The notes beneath the pieces were generated by a model that was given only the letters and a program-made list of their open reading frames with translations, was not told where the DNA came from and made no database searches. From Amoebophrya sp. A120 (lineage: Eukaryota; Protista; Dinoflagellata): a stretch of 8,224 bases of DNA. Each line of letters starts with the position of its first letter. The stretch's first letter is position 1. A program made the translations under genes and the position numbers. The DNA is taken from positions 866,067 to 874,290 of the forward strand of contig CAJINV010000022.1 of NCBI GenBank assembly GCA_905178155.1. Reading direction: 5' to 3'. Below, one piece after another: positions 1 to 8,224 of the stretch.

Positions 1-245
1 CGGGGCGCATGACCTCCAGCGGGCGGGGCGCATGACCTTCCGCGGCCGGGGCGCATGACCTCCAGCGGGCGGGGCGCATGACCTTCCGCGGGCAGGGCGG
101 GGCGCATGACCTCCAGCACGCGGGGCGCATGACCTTCCGCGGCCGGGGCGCGTGACCTCCAGCACGCGGGGCGCATGACCTCCAGCTGGCGGGGCGCATG
201 ACCTCCAGCACGCGGGGCGCATGACCTTCCGCGGCCGGGGCGCGT
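1..245. repeat. GC-rich 23-bp minisatellite, 10 full units plus a partial unit, running off the window start
   Basis: Units start at 1, 24, 47, 70, 98, 121, 144, 167, 190, 213 and 236. Core CGGGGCGCATGACCT followed by CCAGC-type or TCCGCGG-type tails; one unit is 28 bp. Confidence 0.95.
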
Positions 246-409
246 CAGGACTTTGCTCGCTGTGGCCACAGCGAAGAAATTTCCCTGGCGGACCTGTGTT
301 TGCAGTCCGACGCGTCGGACTGCAAATGCAGCATGAGCCCAGGACTTTGTTCGCTGTGGCCACAGCGAAGAAATTTCCCTGGCGGACGTCGGACTGCAAA
401 TGCAGCATG
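246..409. repeat. Two-copy direct repeat containing perfect palindromes
   Basis: 246-293 matches 340-387 (one mismatch seen) and 314-335 recurs at 388-409. Palindromes at 257-274, 299-326 and 350-369. Confidence 0.9.
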
Positions 410-436
410 GCCTATCCACACACGAGCATCACACCT

Positions 437-466
437 TTCCACACCCAGGCATCTTTGCAGTGAATA
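437..466. mobile_element. Right TIR of a family A element whose left end is presumably upstream of the window
   Basis: ttccacacccaggcatctttgcagtgaata aligns without gaps to the family A right end ttccagacccagacatttttgcatttgata. Confidence 0.6.
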
Positions 467-580
467 TGCACTAGAACGGAGCAAGCATCCGCCTTCGTTC
501 AAGCACGACAAGGACCGAGAATCCGGCCTCGCAGCGCTTTTCGAAAGGTACGCGAACCTCGGCGAAGGGGCAGAGGGGAA
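467..580 (+). CDS. Predicted exon 1 in view (ALERSKHPPSFKHDKDRESGLAALFERYANLGEGAEG)
   Basis: Lies between a family A right TIR (ends 466) and element F (starts 581). Same frame as ORF 300..599 and joins exon 2 in frame. Confidence 0.65.
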
Positions 581-3500
581 TATGAGAGTGCACAATTAGC
601 CCTGGCTTTACCTCATTTGTCATGCAAAATCCCCAATCCGAATGCTGCGTCGTGGCACTGTTTGCATGACAAATTCCAGAAAAGCGCAGGCCTCTCCACG
701 TGTGGGTGTGCCGGTCATTTTTGTATCGCTGTTTATGCCAACATGCAAATGAGGGGAACGAGGGGGGGTTGTGCCTTGTGCCGTCTCATAGGAAAAACGC
801 TCGTGCTAAATGGCAAGCGGGAAGTACTGGACACGTTGGCTGCTGCCGCTGCAAGTGGAAATCGCGACACGTCATCAAAAAATGTGGAACAAGATGAAGA
901 ATCGGAACGCGATGAAGAAACGGCCGAGCGAGTGGACATCCTAAACTTGTTCTTCGACGTCCTACCCTGCCGGGAGTATCTCTTAACCCACGTCACCAGC
1001 TTCTTTCTCTCCCCCCTGTCAATATGCATTGCAGAAGCATCGCATTTCTAGTAGGACTCCTTGCATTACAAATTTTCTCCACAGCATTAAGAATGGAATT
1101 TGTCGTGCTAATTTAGCTTGGAGAGGGACATTTGTTATGCGTGGCTTTCAATTACAACTACAAGTGCGACGGTTCTGTTGCACAGCATGACCAATCCTGT
1201 TAGACGACTTGCTGTTGCCCAGCCTTTATTAAATGCAAAAATGTCTGGGTCTGGAAGGATGCAAGATTTGTCATGCAGATTTCTCATGATCCATGATAGC
1301 CTGTGATGTATGCCCTAGCATTACAGATTTTTAGAAACCTTCCTGATGCACCTTCCGCATGAGAAATGCCCTGTCCGTGTAGCACAAACCGGACCCTCTT
1401 GCTGGTGGTCATGCAATACAATTTTTTTTAGAGTCCAAAAACAGCATGATAAGTTGCATTCTACTTCCCGACCCAGACATTTTTGCATTTGATAGCCTCG
1501 TTGGAGTTGCGACGGAGATGGACGAGCACCAAATATGATTTGCAAAAATGTCTGGGTCTGGAAAGATGCAGCGAATTTGTGTTGCTGAGTCTTGCATGCC
1601 GAAGCGGTCTCTTGTACGGCTTTCACGCATCACAAATTTTTCCAGTGGTATTGCGAGCTCTACCGTGTTTCGCATGACAAACTGGCTTTAGCACGACAAA
1701 AAAGCTGGCCCATCGCAGTCATGCATTACAGATCTGGTCGTCCTCCGAATTTCGCATCACAAATCCAGACCCAGACATATTTGCAATGCATAAAAAGCCG
1801 GCGTGAGCAAAAGTGGTGGAGCACCGGCTGATCGTATGGATTGCAAAAATGTCTGGGTCTGGAAGAATGCGCGATTTGTCATGCAGCTTTTTCATGACCC
1901 ATGAGGTCTGGAATGCAGGACCTAGCATGACAGCTTCTGTGCGATCTCTCTCATGATGCCTATCCTGCATGAGAAACTCCCTCCCGACTTGGCCAAAACT
2001 GGACGACTTTTGGTGATCATGCAACACAGATTTTTGCATGCTTCAGATTTAGCATGACAAGTTGCATTCTTCCAGACATCCAGACATATTTGCACTTGAT
2101 AGGCCTCGTTGGAGTTGCGACGGAGATGGACGAGCACCAAATATGATTTGCAAAAGTATCGTATTCGTATCTATAAAATGCATTACAAATTTTCCCAGCA
2201 TGAGGAATCAAGTTTGTAATGCGGTTTTACCTTGAAAAAAAAATTTGTAATGCAAGACTTGCATTTATACGAGTACGATGCTTTTGCACAGGATACGTGC
2301 GCGAGCCGCGGTTCGTGGTGAGGGAAATGCAAAAATGTCTGGATCTGGAAACTTGTGATGCAAGGAAGGGAATACGGCGCACACTGTGATGCAAATACGC
2401 TGCCAAGCATGACAAGTTTTTTCGTGGTTCTGAGTTGCGTACTCCGCATGAGAAACTGGGTCTTTGCATGACAGGCAAGAGGAGCTCTTTGCGGCTACGC
2501 AACACAGAGTCCAGAGTCATGCCAGACTAGCATGACAAACCTCGCAATCTCCCTGACCCAGACATTTTTACATTTGATAACAACCTGGCGTGAGCAAAAG
2601 TGGTGGAGAACCTCCGGCTGATCATCGCGGGGTAACGCAATCCAGCTCTTTGTCCACGACCTTATTGAGAGGAAAAACCCCCCCTCCCCATATCAAAACG
2701 AAGTTTCTGATGCTGGATTTGCGTACTCAAATCAGATCTGTCTTGCTGGCGAGGACTGCGGGCTCCTGCCAAGCCTGAGTAGAGAGCTTTTGGCCTAGGC
2801 GCTTAGCATGAGAAACTTCTATGCTGTAGGCCCAACAGCATGACAAACCGCCTGCATAGTGCGGCAGAGCCTGCGGAGTTGTCTTCTTGCACTACAGACG
2901 TGATTTGCGACCTCAAATAAGCAGCACAAATATTCGGAAACATGCCTTTTCGATATGAGGAGGGGGGATTTTTCCTCACAATAGACCTCGCAAACAGCCC
3001 TGAACCCCATATCCTGTGAAAAAACGTGGTTCCCACCCCAGAGTTGTATCTACAAGAACATTTGTGATGCCCATCCCGCCAATGAGAGGCATTTCTAATC
3101 GTGTTTTGGCATCTGTAAAAATACTGTAAACTGGATAAAAGTTCGCGTGTCCGTGTGATGCGGCTGTCGTCCGTGCTAGCCTTTACTGTACTCTACAGAT
3201 ACTAGAAACTTGTCCTGCGTGACTCTCGAGGCTTCTAGATTTGTGTAGCAAAATCCTGATCCTGACACTGGGCTGTTGATGTACTGGAAGAGAACATAAA
3301 AATAAAGCACAGAAAACTTATGAATTTTCGGGGTGGGAGCAACGCTTTTCCACAGAATACCCCTCCAGCCTTATCAAAAGGAAAAATCCCCCCTCCCCAT
3401 ACTGAAAAGGTATGTTTCTAAAAATTTGTGATGCTGATTTGTGAGNAAAAATGTCTGGGTCTGGAAGAATGCGCGATTTGTCATGCAGCTTTTTCATGAC

Positions 3501-6500
3501 CCATGAGGTCTGGAATGCAGGACCTAGCATGACAGCTTCTGTGCGATCTCTCTCATGATGCCTATCCTGCATGAGAAACTCCCTCCCGACTTGGCCAAAA
3601 CTGGACGACTTTTGGTGATCATGCAACACAGATTTTTGCATGCTTCAGATTTAGCATGACAAGTTGCATTCTTCCAGACATCCAGACATATTTGCACTTG
3701 ATAGGCCTCGTTGGAGTTGCGACGGAGATGGACGAGCACCAAATATGATTTGCAAAAGTATCGTATTCGTATCTATAAAATGCATTACAAATTTTCCCAG
3801 CATGAGGAATCAAGTTTGTAATGCGGTTTTACCTTGAAAAAAAAATTTGTAATGCAAGACTTGCATTTATACGAGTACGATGCTTTTGCACAGGATACGT
3901 GCGCGAGCCGCGGTTCGTGGTGAGGGAAATGCAAAAATGTCTGGATCTGGAAACTTGTGATGCAAGGAAGGGAATACGGCGCACACTGTGATGCAAATAC
4001 GCTGCCAAGCATGACAAGTTTTTTCGTGGTTCTGAGTTGCGTACTCCGCATGAGAAACTGGGTCTTTGCATGACAGGCAAGAGGAGCTCTTTGCGGCTAC
4101 GCAACACAGAGTCCAGAGTCATGCCAGACTAGCATGACAAACCTCGCAATCTCCCTGACCCAGACATTTTTACATTTGATAACAACCTGGCGTGAGCAAA
4201 AGTGGTGGAGAACCTCCGGCTGATCATCGCGGGGTAACGCAATCCAGCTCTTTGTCCACGACCTTATTGAGAGGAAAAACCCCCCCTCCCCATATCAAAA
4301 CGAAGTTTCTGATGCTGGATTTGCGTACTCAAATCAGATCTGTCTTGCTGGCGAGGACTGCGGGCTCCTGCCAAGCCTGAGTAGAGAGCTTTTGGCCTAG
4401 GCGCTTAGCATGAGAAACTTCTATGCTGTAGGCCCAACAGCATGACAAACCGCCTGCATAGTGCGGCAGAGCCTGCGGAGTTGTCTTCTTGCACTACAGA
4501 CGTGATTTGCGACCTCAAATAAGCAGCACAAATATTCGGAAACATGCCTTTTCGATATGAGGAGGGGGGATTTTTCCTCACAATAGACCTCGCAAACAGC
4601 CCTGAACCCCATATCCTGTGAAAAAACGTGGTTCCCACCCCAGAGTTGTATCTACAAGAACATTTGTGATGCCCATCCCGCCAATGAGAGGCATTTCTAA
4701 TCGTGTTTTGGCATCTGTAAAAATACTGTAAACTGGATAAAAGTTCGCGTGTCCGTGTGATGCGGCTGTCGTCCGTGCTAGCCTTTACTGTACTCTACAG
4801 ATACTAGAAACTTGTCCTGCGTGACTCTCGAGGCTTCTAGATTTGTGTAGCAAAATCCTGATCCTGACACTGGGCTGTTGATGTACTGGAAGAGAACATA
4901 AAAATAAAGCACAGAAAACTTATGAATTTTCGGGGTGGGAGCAACGCTTTTCCACAGAATACCCCTCCAGCCTTATCAAAAGGAAAAATCCCCCCTCCCC
5001 ATACTGAAAAGGTATGTTTCTAAAAATTTGTGATGCTGATTTGTGAGCACAAATCCTGTCTCTCTTGCAAGAGGGCAAACTCAGAGACTCCGCCACGATA
5101 TGCAGGCGATTTGTAATGCTGCAAGGCCTATAGGGCAGACGTTTGCCACGCTAGGGGCCTACACCAAGAGGCCCCTCCTTAGGCTTAGGATCTCCGTGCA
5201 GTCCTTTACTGCAAGACAAATGTGATTTGTGTACTCAAATACAGCAACACAGATTTCGTTTTCGACATGGGGAGGGGGAATTTTTCCTTTTGATAAGCCT
5301 GTATTTCTTCGGGCATGTGGTCCCCGGAAGAAACCTCGAATCCGACAGCCGACGCTCGAAGGACACCGCAAGATGCGTTTTCCACCCGGATCTGGTTTTT
5401 CCGAAAAATGAAGACGACCACCCTACGGCGCTGCAGCTTCCACCTGCACGAAACAAAACGCGTTTTTTCATCGAGGTTGGCGGCCACCAGGGGGACTGCA
5501 TTTTGCCCTGGGTTCTGTCCGGGGTTGCGGAAAAAGGAGTCTTCGTAGACGCGCACAACCCCGCCGTAAAAGCCGTGGAGAAAACGATGGCAGATCTGTT
5601 TTCGACAACCGAAAAACCGTCTCCAGCACCGGCCGCTGGCGTTTATGTTAACTCGTCATCATCCAGCAAGGATGATGAAATCTTCCTCGCACTGCAAAGT
5701 GCTTCCTCGCTTGTGGTCACGAAAAGCCGCTTTCTCGCCGATGACGCGCACAACAACCAGTGCTTCCAGCTACTGGACGCCGACTCGGTGGCGCAGAACG
5801 CGTATCAAATGCAAAAATGTCTGGGTCTGGGAGGTTGCAAGATTTGTCATGCAGATTTTGCATGACCCATATTATGCCTGTAATGCGTGGCCTAGCATCA
5901 CAGATTTTTAAAGCGCTTCCTCATGCCTATTCCGCATGACAAATGCCATCTCCGCGGAGCACAAAATCTACTCCTCTTACTGGTCACGCAATACAAAATT
6001 TTTTCGAATCCAGAGACAGCATCACAAGTTTAGGATCTTCCAGACCCAGACACTTTTGATCATTTGATAACGCGGGGAGCACGACCATAAGCATCAACGC
6101 GTTCCACTCGGCAGCGTTTTCCCCAGTGGAGTGTGCAGTAGCTGACACAAAAATGAGTGCTGGATCTGCAAACGCACCTGCGCCACCGCATTCTCCCGCA
6201 GGAGCCACGGTAGTCCAGATGGCAAGCTTGGACAGCATCGTACCGCCAGAAGTGCTGGATCGTGCGCCGGAGATGAATTATCGCTACACAGATCCACTGG
6301 GTGCTCCTGGTGTGGTTGACGCAGCTTCCTCTGCCACGTGGCCTAGCAACAGCACAACGTCCTCCTGTGTTCTCTACATGCGGCTGGCGCGGAACGAGTT
6401 TGCGGTGCTCGATATCAAATGTAAAAATGTCTGGGTCTGGAAGAATTCATGTTTGTCATGCTTGTCTGGCATGACTCTTAAATCTGTCATGCACGTTACC

Positions 6501-7188
6501 CAAGAGCTTCGCTTTTCTGTGATGCAGAAGCGCAGTTTGACATGCAGAATAGGCAACACCTAGGAGCTCAGAAACTTGTCATGCTGAGCCAGCATCTGTA
6601 GCCTCATCATGAGACGCCACCCAGCATCACAAGTTTCCAGACCCAGACATTTTTACATTTGGTACTCGAGGGTGCAAGACGACTTTTAAAAAACTGCGAG
6701 TTTGTCATGCTGTTATGTGAGTAAAAACATCCCCACGACCACCCCATGTTTGTCATGCCAATCTGCATGCCTAAAAATCATGTTTCTCATGCCTAGTCTC
6801 ATGGCAACCGTTCTTTTGCGATGGTGTTTTGGACATGCTAGAATTAGGACAAGCTGATCGATTTGTGTTGCGGCTATTTTACCAGAGAACACTGATTAGT
6901 GCAATGCTAGCCCAATAAACTTGTCATGCGCAACAGCCAAAAGCTCTCGACCTGTCCCTCTGTAGCAAGACTCCCATCTTGACGCCGGTGCTGGGGCGAG
7001 GACGTTTTTACGCACGATAAATCTCCGGAATCCATCACGAGGATTATCTGCTCTTGCGGAAGTGGCTCTTCAAAGAAGCGGGCTTTGTGCAGTTGATGGA
7101 TTTAGGGGAGCCTAACTTCCCTCGGAAGTACTATCGAAATACGCTTTTTCGACGAAAATTTGCAGACGTTGATGGCAGTACAAGTTGA
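467..7188 (+). CDS. Multi-exon gene (5' end outside window) encoding an FkbM-like (class I SAM-dependent) methyltransferase, ~543 aa visible
   Basis: Manual join of inter-element segments 467-580, 791-1022, 1190-1226, 1495-1533, 1793-1834, 2102-2141, 2580-2662, 2984-3009, 3360-3371 (=4962-4973), 5296-5802, 6070-6412, 6665-6713 and 7020-7188, dropping 5 nt per junction and collapsing the 1.6-kb duplicate. This gives 544 codons from 468 with one stop (TGA 7186-7188). FkbM-like motifs occur in order: FFIEVGGHQG, GVFVDAH, MASLDSIV, EFAVLEGARRLL (formed across a junction), LRKWLFKEAGF, NTLFRR. Family call is from motif recognition, not a search. Confidence 0.8.
581..790. mobile_element. TIR element / putative introner, family F (210 bp)
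   Basis: Left tatgagagtgcacaa; right end reverse-complements to tatgagacggcacaa; flanks GGGAA/GGAAA. Confidence 0.7.
791..1022 (+). CDS. Predicted exon 2 (GKTLVLNGKREVLDTL...EQDEESERDEE...TSFFLSPLS)
   Basis: Protein-like part of ORF 617..1051, bounded by elements F and D; frame is continuous on both sides. Confidence 0.7.
1023..1189. mobile_element. Degenerate TIR element / putative introner, family D (167 bp)
   Basis: Left tatgcattgcagaagcatcgca; right tgcgacggttctgttgcacagcatg; ends resemble those of 2142-2295; flanks GTCAA/ACCAA. Confidence 0.55.
1190..1226 (+). CDS. Predicted small exon 3 (ILLDDLLLPSL)
   Basis: Between elements D and A1; open in the frame carried from exon 2. Confidence 0.55.
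1227..1494. mobile_element. TIR element / putative introner A1 (268 bp)
   Basis: tattaaatgcaaaaatgtctgggtc ... gacccagacatttttgcatttgata; flanks GCCTT/GCCTC. Confidence 0.85.
1495..1533 (+). CDS. Predicted small exon 4 (LVGVATEMDEHQ)
   Basis: Between A1 and A2; identical to 2103-2141; in frame. Confidence 0.55.
1534..1792. mobile_element. TIR element / putative introner A2 (259 bp)
   Basis: tatgatttgcaaaaatgtctgggtctgga ... tccagacccagacatatttgcaatgcata; flanks eroded (CCAAA/AAAAG). Confidence 0.8.
1793..1834 (+). CDS. Predicted small exon 5 (GVSKSGGAPAD)
   Basis: Between A2 and A3; paralogous to the start of exon 7, differing by an in-frame 3-nt indel. Confidence 0.55.
1835..2101. mobile_element. 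TIR element / putative introner A3 (267 bp)
   Basis: tatggattgcaaaaatgtctgg ... ccagacatatttgcacttgata; flanks do not match (GATCG/GGCCT); left-truncated duplicate at 3447-3703. Confidence 0.8.
2102..2141 (+). CDS. Predicted small exon 6 (LVGVATEMDEHQ)
   Basis: Between A3 and the composite element; duplicate copy at 3704-3743. Confidence 0.55.
2142..2579. mobile_element. Composite element: family D body (2142-2295), short linker, and a family A element lacking its first bases (2325-2579)
   Basis: Internal inverted pair tgcaaaagtatcgtattcgtat / atacgagtacgatgcttttgca, then aaatgcaaaaatgtctggatctgg ... cccagacatttttacatttgata; outer flanks CCAAA/ACAAC; duplicate at 3744-4181. Confidence 0.7.
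2580..2662 (+). CDS. Predicted exon 7 (QPGVSKSGGEPPADHRGVTQSSSLSTT)
   Basis: The only + frame without a stop in this segment, and it is the frame the join requires; duplicate copy at 4182-4264. Confidence 0.6.
2663..2983. mobile_element. TIR element / putative introner B1 (321 bp)
   Basis: tattgagaggaaaaaccccccctccccatatc ... gatatgaggaggggggatttttcctcacaata; perfect flanking repeat GACCT; duplicate at 4265-4585. Confidence 0.85.
2984..3009 (+). CDS. Predicted micro-exon 8 (TSQTALNP)
   Basis: Between B1 and C; in frame; duplicate copy at 4586-4611. Confidence 0.5.
3010..3359. mobile_element. TIR element / putative introner, family C (350 bp)
   Basis: tatcctgtgaaaaaacgtggttcccacccc ... ggggtgggagcaacgcttttccacagaata; flanks CCCCA/CCCCT; duplicate at 4612-4961. 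Confidence 0.8.
3360..3371 (+). CDS. Predicted micro-exon 9 (12 nt between elements, 7 nt net)
   Basis: cccct-cc-agcct: two target-site repeats separated by 2 nt. Needed to keep the frame. Duplicate copy at 4962-4973. Confidence 0.45.
4974..5295. mobile_element. TIR element / putative introner B2 (322 bp)
   Basis: tatcaaaaggaaaaatccccctccccat-type left end ... atggggagggggaatttttccttttgata; perfect flanking repeat AGCCT; truncated duplicate at 3372-3445. Confidence 0.85.
5296..5802 (+). CDS. Predicted exon 10 carrying SAM-binding motif I (FFIEVGGHQG)
   Basis: Core of ORF 5227..5865, bounded by B2 and A5, each with a perfect 5-bp flanking repeat. Confidence 0.8.
5803..6069. mobile_element. 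TIR element / putative introner A5 (267 bp)
   Basis: tatcaaatgcaaaaatgtctgggtctgg ... ccagacccagacacttttgatcatttgata; perfect flanking repeat ACGCG; body similar to A1. Confidence 0.88.
6070..6412 (+). CDS. Predicted exon 11 (GSTTISINAF...MASLDSIV...NEFAVL)
   Basis: Frame of ORF 6126..6563; in frame with exon 10 after removing A5 and one ACGCG. Confidence 0.8.
6413..6664. mobile_element. TIR element / putative introner A6 (252 bp)
   Basis: tatcaaatgtaaaaatgtctgggtctggaa ... ttccagacccagacatttttacatttggta; perfect flanking repeat CTCGA. Confidence 0.88.
6665..6713 (+). CDS. Predicted exon 12 (LEGARRLLKNCEFVML)
   Basis: Completes the FkbM-like E-x-x-V-L-x-G-A-x-x-L-L motif after removing A6 and one CTCGA. 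Confidence 0.75.
6714..7019. mobile_element. Degenerate TIR element / putative introner, family E (306 bp)
   Basis: Left tatgtgagtaaaaacatcc; right end reverse-complements to tatcgtgcgtaaaaacgtcc; flanks eroded, but the element+5 rule keeps the frame. Confidence 0.65.
7020..7188 (+). CDS. Predicted last exon (SGIHHEDYLLLRKWLFKEAGFVQLMDLGEPNFPRKYYRNTLFRRKFADVDGSTS*)
   Basis: Open from 7021 to TGA 7186-7188; FkbM-like C-terminal L-x-x-x-x-G-F and N-x-L-F pattern; absent from the ORF track. Confidence 0.75.
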
Positions 7189-7446
7189 ATAGCAACATGA
7201 TCCCGCAAATGTGTTTGCTGGGAAAACATCCAGAAACCACCTGCACTCCTGTTTTTTACCTCGCCGTGCAGCTCGTCGAAATGCTGGCTGCGCGGATCAC
7301 TTTCTTTGTTCGACGAAGAATGTTTGATTCGTTATAGCACGTTTTTCCTTAGCAAAATGAGTAGTAGAATGAATGGCAAATAAAGTTTGCACTGCATTCC
7401 GTTGGCGTGTGCTGCTGGGTTCCAGCAATGGCCCCGAATGGGAGTC

Positions 7447-8224
7447 AAAATGCGAAGTAGAATTGCGTCAAGTGTTTTCTTTCTCCGCACACTGGCTCAG
7501 GGGGTATCTTGTAATTGGGGCGCAAAAGCAAACCCAAAATGCGAAGTATAATCGCGTCAAGTGTTTTCTTTCTGCGCACACTTGTGTCTCAGCGGGTATC
7601 TTCTAATTGGCGCGTAAAAGCAAACCCAAAAAGCAAAGTAGAATCGCGTAAAGTGTTTCCTTTCTGCGATCACTTTCACAGTGGCTGTCTTCTACTTCTT
7701 GGGGTTTCCAAAATAGAGCCCGAATCCCAAGTAGAATCGCATCAAGTGCTTTTGCCATACAATGCAGGAAAGAGGTGTTGCTAACTCCTCTCGCTGAGTT
7801 GCATTTCAGAGTCTTGTGGCTCCGCATTCAGCAGGGGTGCTGAACTGCGGCCGTGATCCAGCGCGCCAATATTTCTTTCTGCGAGCATTTTCTCAGCGGC
7901 CGTCTTCTGCTTCTTGGGGTTTCCAAAATAGAGACCGAATGCCAAGTAGAATCGCATCAAGTGCTTTTGCCATACGATGCAGGCAAGTTGGAATTGGGGG
8001 CTGCATTTTCGGGACTTTTGGCTTTCCATTCAGCTTCAGTGGTGTTGAATCGTGGCCAGCATCCACCTTACCGCAGGCGCCCAGTGGAATTGGGGTCGCA
8101 TTTTCGAGGCCTTTGGCTTCACATGCAGCAGTGGCGCTGAATCGTGGCCAAGATCCACCATACCACCGGCGCCCAGTGGAAAGGGGGTCGCATTTTCGAG
8201 ACCTTTGACTTCGCATTCAGCAGT
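7447..8224. repeat. Degenerate ~90-bp tandem repeat array with several subtypes
   Basis: aagtagaatcgc-like core at 7455, 7544, 7636, 7729 and 7944; ~105-bp block at 7661-7767 repeated at 7876-7983; ggaattgggg-like units at 7990, 8086 and 8178. Confidence 0.85.

Follow-up and report, generated by a model that had tools for sequence, protein, structure and literature searches.

Can a gene broken up again and again by transposon-like inverted repeats be a working gene, and if so, where and at what level are the repeats removed? This question is raised by a stretch of 8,224 nucleotides from the dinoflagellate Amoebophrya sp. A120 (contig CAJINV010000022.1, positions 866,067 to 874,290 of the forward strand), referred to below as the window. 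The answer favoured here, with a probability of roughly 0.6 for the reading as a whole, is that the window carries most of a working gene whose 13 in-window introns (E1–E13) are short elements bounded by inverted repeats and 5-bp target duplications. At every junction that allows the cut to be placed, E7 excepted, it lies 1 nt before the left TAT of the element and 4 nt after its right ATA (the -1/+4 register), and removal is likely to take place in the RNA, probably by a modified spliceosome. The intron class and the gene model are already public, the former as the introner elements of A120 (Farhat 2021, PMC7789003). The original prediction of a hidden intron system had the organism and the published class right; its claim to a discovery falls, since both class and model were available, and the cut register is a modest addition.

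The exon sequence 5302–5799 matched two proteins among 876 candidates of 292–2000 residues: one of 691 amino acids from Amoebophrya sp. A120 (P0001), to which it is 100% identical, and the A25 orthologue of 613 amino acids (P0002). Excision of all 13 elements at -1/+4 yields residues 144–691 of P0001 exactly. As the remaining 143 residues lie beyond the window and a contig (X6) joins position 469 to 212 nt from an exon outside it, the gene starts upstream. P0001 and P0002 align with E=1e-78, the frame holding across E2, E3, E11, E12 and E13. Stop-codon reassignment was rejected: the standard code yields P0001. Two of the exons are minute. One of 18 nt, encoding six residues, is contained in P0001, and a gap of 18 nt points to it in an X3 contig; the other, a micro-exon of 7 nt between two hairpin introns, is read directly in the end of an X4 contig.

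The number of elements depends on how the assembly is read. An exhaustive repeat scan of the window found that 1845–3445 recurs exactly at 3447–5047 (1601 nt), with the only N of the window, at 3446, between the two copies. Contigs from run X1, which behaves as DNA, have depths of 42.1 and 49.5 within the repeat and of 40.3, 46.2 and 44 outside it (longest pieces only), and the exons borne by the repeat occur once in P0001. The repeat is therefore probably an assembly artefact, a scaffold overlap; a genuine 1.6-kb tandem duplication was rejected, the DNA depth being single-copy. Once the repeat is collapsed, the window contains 13 unique elements of 154–350 nt, spanning 581 to 7019; of one more, E0, it has only the right end, at 466.

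The original prediction had counted 12 TAT...ATA elements and, by deleting each with one 5-nt flank, had joined its separately called open reading frames (ORFs) into a frame of 544 codons. Elements do interrupt the region throughout and the ORFs do join; there are, however, 13 elements, 2142–2579 being two introns around the 18-nt exon. Most ends conform to the motif, with TAT at the start of 12 of the 13 and ATA at the end of 11 (E2 ends in ATG, E12 in GTA). The 12-element join gives 542 codons counted from 471 and 544 from 465, the first two of which are intronic, and its frame is open only when the second 1601-nt copy is collapsed. The total of five extra nucleotides stands, but the cut divides it, taking 1 nt of the left flank and 4 nt of the right. 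With random extras of 0–9 nt per element the frame stayed open in 7 of 20000 trials, while uniform extras of 2, 5, 8 or 11 nt all leave it open, so that the frame alone cannot set the value at +5. That value is fixed by the duplications and the RNA.

Six of 20 listed runs were compared with the window: X1, X3, X6 and X18 over 3447–7400, and X3–X6 over 250–3445. X3–X6 are contigs of a single sample, read here as likely RNA. In these contigs removal of the element plus 5 nt was seen at 10 of the 13 sites (Table 1). Six of these are direct skips between exons without differences from the window (E1, E5, E8, E9, E10 and E11), those of E9 and E10 being read in one loose end. The other four follow from length: two records leave 48 unlisted nt between 6407 and 7024 (E12 and E13), and a single record leaves 18 between 2140 and 2584 (E6 and E7). 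The public gene model removes the elements at all 13 sites. None of 11 junctions examined offers a GT-AG, GC-AG or AT-AC pair on the sense strand in any equivalent register, and canonical splicing was rejected; a CT..AC option at E8 is antisense to the gene. The forecast of gaps of element plus five at every site was borne out at these 10, with E2 off frame and E3 and E4 lacking a contig. Taken with the frame kept against the A25 orthologue, the contigs and the gene model support the earlier claim of a live gene from which the elements are precisely removed, and it is very likely that this happens at the RNA level.

The position of the cut can be fixed only where the two 5-nt flanks of an element differ. 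The contigs allow offsets of -2 to 0 at E1, -2 or -1 at E5, -1 or less at E9, and -1 or 0 at E13; the sole register common to the four is -1/+4. P0001 rules out 0/+5 at four elements (E4, E5, E6 and E9) and any register from -4/+1 outward at five (E2, E4, E5, E6 and E13). The register fits every located junction except E7, and places TAT at intron positions +2 to +4 and ATA at -7 to -5, the first and last bases being free. Flanks match perfectly in four of the 13 elements, at four of five positions in three, and at three or fewer in six. As E5, E6 and E13 match at only one or two positions and are nevertheless removed at +5, the duplication is not needed for removal. It is quite probable that -1/+4 is general for intact elements of the A120 type.

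The elements are members of repeated families. Summed X1 depth reaches ~10^6 on element bins, against ~50 on exons; E8 and E10 belong to one family in opposite orientations; the left ends of 10 elements (all but E1, E2 and E7) fit TAT, seven nucleotides and AAA; and no window element contains an ORF. Many are predicted to fold into strong hairpins. Further copies come from one end-motif scan of a metagenome (15 of 64 parts), which returned 157 stretches; the 155 loci analysed (L001–L155) include 80 with flanks, which share one assembly prefix. Because the element finder accepted only ends with TA(T/C) and an A-run, the end statistics are biased. Compared with A120 proteins, single exons of these loci show 96% and 87% agreement, so the loci represent a sister strain rather than an independent lineage. 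Twelve of the 13 window elements have matches there over 80% of their own length. Perfect flanking repeats are 5 bp long in 185 of 245 elements and 2 bp in 25, with counts of 0–4 at lengths 3, 4 and 6–9. The coding frame oriented 169 of 306 elements, and the rest were dropped: among the 169 both orientations are about equally frequent in most families (E3 21:23, E5 24:28), all 16 terminal dinucleotides occur, and the intron phases are 84:40:45, an excess of phase 0 (p=3e-5).

Two sister-strain loci allow the register to be followed outside the window. In L070, the product of cutting at -1/+4 matches the A120 protein P0003 in frame across 11 of 11 predicted junctions (97% and 91% identity in the first and second aligned blocks, respectively). 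One of these junctions is strongly informative and fits -1/+4 or 0/+5 only; a further element, missed by the finder, has a perfect duplication and ends in ATG. In L065 three junctions match P0004, and one lies outside the aligned part. The element at L065:3329–3608 has three extra bases between its left duplication and its end, and a +5 cut there would add one codon relative to the A120 protein. Four longer end pairs of 631–1031 nt have perfect 5-bp flanks (L022:632–1465, L045:3315–3945, L065:3001–4031 and L072:4024–4995); none of the four holds a transposase-length ORF (ORFs of at most 151 amino acids), and no IS3-like DDE transposase or autonomous element was found, no profile-library scan having been made. 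The L065:3001–4031 pair seems to enclose adjacent elements and exons with flanks that match. Three inverted-repeat patterns gave no match in viral contigs.

How might such introns arise and be removed? Mobilization as DNA transposons is suggested by the inverted repeats, by a duplication sharply set at 5 bp and by the occurrence of both orientations: a DDE transposase making a 5-bp staggered cut would spread the non-autonomous elements. In the pre-mRNA the two ends of an element would pair and bring donor to acceptor, in place of U1 and of the AG signal, and both orientations would function because both ends share one motif. The removal of 1+4 nt would cancel the 5-bp duplication, leaving the protein unchanged by a new insertion and the duplication free to decay later. 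Because the cut lies at -1, every intact intron begins N-T-A. In a normal donor the U at +2 and the A at +3 are read by the U6/Prp8 core, which the N-T-A start could still engage. Predominant non-canonical pairs in Table S4 of the 2021 paper start with xT in nine of nine cases in A120 and with TT in nine of nine in A25, where the inverted repeat starts TTA (PMC7789003). E7 seems to pair a GT donor with an acceptor at +4 that is not AG. A modified spliceosome is accordingly favoured here as the enzyme, if by no wide measure of confidence.

The most serious competitor retains the same elements and the same -1/+4 cut and assigns them to a spliceosome-independent endonuclease and ligase, recognizing a stem with overhangs of 1 and 4 nt, as suggested for the nonconventional introns of euglenids. 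This is the less likely enzyme, with something like one chance in a few. It would account for the lack of an AG or any acceptor consensus, all 16 dinucleotides being found, and of an invariant branch-point A near the 3' end, where ATA, ATG and GTA occur; euglenid introns too have an offset stem and are released as circles (PMC11282704). The inventory of A120 speaks on both sides, as U1 was not found but U2, U4, U5, U6 and 83 of 89 spliceosomal proteins were, a near-complete spliceosome (PMC7789003). A stem-cutting enzyme sits poorly with E7, which has no in-register stem end and is still cut at a canonical-looking GT donor, with donors that retain a T at +2 and a purine at +3, and with stems that have no G-U bias.

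It is improbable that the direct repeat itself guides the cut, in any register within the duplication and with no fixed offset from the element ends. Such guidance would suit the perfect duplications, the splice sites called variable in Farhat 2021 (PMC7789003), and the mismatches by duplication position (13, 7, 6, 5 and 2 of 162 for positions 1–5), which are fewest next to the cut. However, 9 of the 13 position-1 mismatches fall at third codon positions, although codon position explains only part of the gradient; E5, E6 and E13 are removed at +5 almost without a duplication, and one register fits all located junctions.

Excision from DNA, as with the eliminated sequences of ciliates, or absence of the elements from another strain, would make X3–X6 DNA and is less probable still. 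These runs are not recorded as RNA, the element ends are TA-like, and no informative pair in opposite orientations ties the -1/+4 asymmetry to transcription rather than to element polarity. On the other hand, E9 and E13 stand at their sites in X1 contigs, which include the flanks on either side and agree fully with the window, whereas X3 and X6 contigs have exons identical to the window, stop 92–182 nt past the stop codon and have an element:exon depth ratio far below that of X1. That the joined contigs are reverse-transcription template-switch artefacts in a transposon-wrecked gene is hardly credible: the strong hairpins and direct repeats of many elements, the single sample behind the contigs and one off-frame junction would allow it, but junctions have microhomology of only 0–2 nt, and neither the A25 alignment nor the sister-strain L070 loses frame.

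Several observations weigh against the reading of a live gene with RNA-level, spliceosomal removal at one register. The RNA status of X3–X6 is guessed, from one sample whose data may overlap with the public gene model. E2, whose right end is decayed, is crossed only by an X4 loose end reaching 12 nt past the joint, which resumes at 1189 rather than 1194, a shift of frame that brings a stop after 116 codons; the in-frame form is based on P0001 and the A25 orthologue. The predicted fold of E2 favours the 1184 register, that of the off-frame cut; both acceptors, 5 nt apart, lie 4 nt past an ATA-like triplet, and X3 and X6 contigs stop exactly at 1021, before the element. E3 and E4, with the exons 1194–1225 and 1499–1532, are without contig cover, a hole that proves nothing. 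E7 is removed as element plus 7, becoming +5 only if its left edge is set post hoc: its GT donor lies three bases before the in-register repeat start, which breaks the strict rule, even if the intron ends 4 nt past ATA. In L065 a junction without duplication exceeds P0004 by one codon whichever +5 register is applied, although the strains may differ there. Predicted stems are imperfect, positions 4–7 often being unpaired and in-register pairing of the first 20 positions averaging below 0.5 in five of the 13 elements. No sense-strand excess of G-U over A-C was seen in the sister-strain stems (87 vs 110, p=0.12), and hence no sign of selection for pairing in the RNA. The Table S4 motifs were possibly shaped by aligner preference, and the enzyme itself, spliceosome or other, is a proposed one. 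The raw RNA run X18 has element fragments and no exon reads, which has no bearing on expression.

E7 is also the only element with clear unspliced pieces of its own copy (X6: 2345–2427 and 2498–2613); together with an X6 contig stopping at 2584, these hint at retention or alternative joins.

A bolder generalization is offered tentatively, at somewhat less than even odds: that all the supposedly signal-free introns of Amoebophrya, tens of thousands of them, obey one fixed rule. In A120 the cut would be -1/+4 regardless of the duplication; A120 (N-T-A) and A25 (T-T-A, from Table S4 and the TTA motif) would both keep the +2 U and +3 A; and a U1-less spliceosome would take one transposon end for its donor and find its acceptor by counting 4 nt beyond the other, making any insertion with a 5-bp duplication silent in either orientation. 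A fixed register, if true, would permit gene prediction from DNA alone, as was done in the sister strain, would account for the tolerance of insertions in both orientations, and would give exact positions for mutation or for a lariat search; the rule likely hints at how splicing of such introns works. The locus supplies natural test cases in E5, E6 and E13 (no duplication), E2 (two competing acceptors) and E7 (decayed end, GT donor).

Table 1. Features of the window, with the evidence for each boundary (positions are those of the window)
Feature	Position	Strand	Evidence
Coding span, 14 exons, P0001 residues 144–691	471–7188	+	Model cut compared with P0001
Exons 1–7	471–579, 795–1021, 1194–1225, 1499–1532, 1797–1833, 2106–2140, 2300–2317	+	
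Exons 8–14	2584–2661, 2988–3008, 3364–3370, 5300–5801, 6074–6411, 6669–6712, 7024–7188 (stop)	+	
E0, 3' part of upstream intron; inverted repeat on the right, same type as in E1–E13, with ATA ending at 466, then 4 nt	1–470	+	X6 joint at 469; P0001 continues upstream
E1, 210 nt; intron 580–794	581–790		X6 joint 578 to 794, skip 215
E2, decayed right end, registers 1184 or 1189; intron 1022–1193 in frame, 1022–1188 off frame	1023–1189		
E3, 268 nt; intron 1226–1498	1227–1494		P0001 and A25 alignment only
E4, 259 nt; intron 1533–1796; flanks match 2/5	1534–1792		P0001 only; allows -1/+4, -2/+3 and -3/+2
E5, 267 nt; intron 1834–2105; target duplication gone (2/5)	1835–2101		X3 joint 1832 to 2105, skip 272
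E6, 154 nt; intron 2141–2299; target duplication absent (1/5)	2142–2295		X3 record ends at 2140, then 18-nt unlisted gap; P0001
E7, decayed left end; intron 2318–2583	2321–2579		X3 resumes at 2584 after 18 nt; P0001
E8, 321 nt; perfect 5-nt duplication; intron 2662–2987	2663–2983		X4 and X6 joint 2657 to 2984, skip 326
E9, 350 nt; intron 3009–3363, then 7-nt micro-exon	3010–3359		X4 loose end at 3008 reads 3364–3370, then 5300 onward; skip 355
N and second copy of 1845–3445	3446–5047		Exact repeat, X1 depth, P0001 exon count
E10, 322 nt; perfect duplication; first 74 nt also at 3372–3445	4974–5295		Skip 327
E11, 267 nt; perfect duplication; intron 5802–6073	5803–6069		X3 and X6 records, skip 272
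E12, 252 nt; ends GTA; perfect duplication; intron 6412–6668, within FkbM-like motif	6413–6664		In 2 records, pieces up to 6407 followed by 48 unlisted nt; P0001
E13, 306 nt; duplication gone (2/5); intron 6713–7023	6714–7019		X3 and X6 pieces resume at 7024

The encoded protein is plausibly an FkbM-like methyltransferase, with an activity that is predicted. The original prediction had seen a methyltransferase motif rebuilt across a junction and proposed a HMMER search against Methyltransf_21/FkbM. Profile searches gave no Pfam match at E<=1 and no NCBIfam match, a PDB sequence search had a best E of 1.2, and an Rfam search no match; with P0002 as query, the only relatives among 1.84 billion representatives are P0001 and P0002. 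The likeness comes from Atlas, which groups residues 310–613 of P0002, its C-terminal half, with PF05050 (FkbM) clusters, at 0.95 by features and with TM scores of 0.52–0.59 by predicted structure, using a model of mean pLDDT 0.49; an AlphaFold model from a two-sequence alignment had a pLDDT of 33 and was not used. The A25 and A120 protein differs from the family in its long low-complexity inserts, its lack of a profile match and its having two relatives only.

Beside these main subjects, two small exons have an internal tandem duplication (1499–1833 and 2106–2625), with 34 nt identical and the second pair close, which is absent from the A25 orthologue. Each copy contains a different element (E3 and E5, 73% alike), and exon 2300–2317 has no counterpart in the first copy; E5 and E6 have no target duplications, as if recombination between elements had rearranged the duplicated exons. 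The intron of E0 exceeds 470 nt and holds a 23-nt GC-rich minisatellite (1–245) and a direct duplication near 246–410. On the 3' side of the gene, two 92-nt tandem arrays of 2.5 copies each and a 116-nt repeat lie within 7446–7675 and 7989–8224; the listed likely-RNA contigs end before them, at 7280 and 7370.

Among known systems the closest is that of the A120 introner elements themselves. According to Farhat 2021 (PMC7789003) their inverted repeats begin with TAT, followed by seven less constrained bases and a run of three or more A, and their direct repeats measure 3–5 nt (5 bp in the legend of Fig. S19); the introners average ~240 nt, lack GT-AG and have RNA-supported removal. The window elements agree in organism, repeat start, direct repeats, non-GT-AG ends, repetition and RNA-supported removal, and there is no difference in kind: a single register, -1/+4, fits every located junction here but E7, whereas the text and legends of that paper term the splice position variable or unknown. 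A statement of the register was not found in the literature searched, although figures, closed preprint supplements or papers beyond those searched could hold one, and the splicing mechanism is stated to be open both there and in a 2024 review (PMC11282704). Gozashti 2025 (PMC12130899) describes A120 introner families as DNA elements with terminal inverted repeats (TIRs), tens of them occurring as introns in one gene. One, family 38, is labelled '5-bp TSD, TA/TA Termini' (TSD, target-site duplication), while automated TSD calls for other A120 families run from 2 to 6, among 40 of 58 rows. Family 38 is ~810 nt long with integrase-like ORFs and is likened to the shorter, ORF-less window elements by that label only. 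The IS3EU/GingerRoot transposons (PMC10045372) share TA..TA termini with them; their TSD is usually 6 bp, in contrast to the 5 bp found here, where perfect 6-mers number 0 of 245.

Further afield, the nonconventional introns of euglenids and the introns of Fritillaria borealis that derive from miniature inverted-repeat elements have TIRs, TSDs and non-canonical ends in common with the window introns (PMC11282704). Those of F. borealis are mainly AG-AC/AT, which the window introns are not. Euglenid introns come nearer in architecture, as in both the stem is offset from the cut sites: there CAG at +4 to +6 pairs with CTG at -8 to -6, and in the window the TAT at +2 to +4 faces the ATA at -7 to -5.

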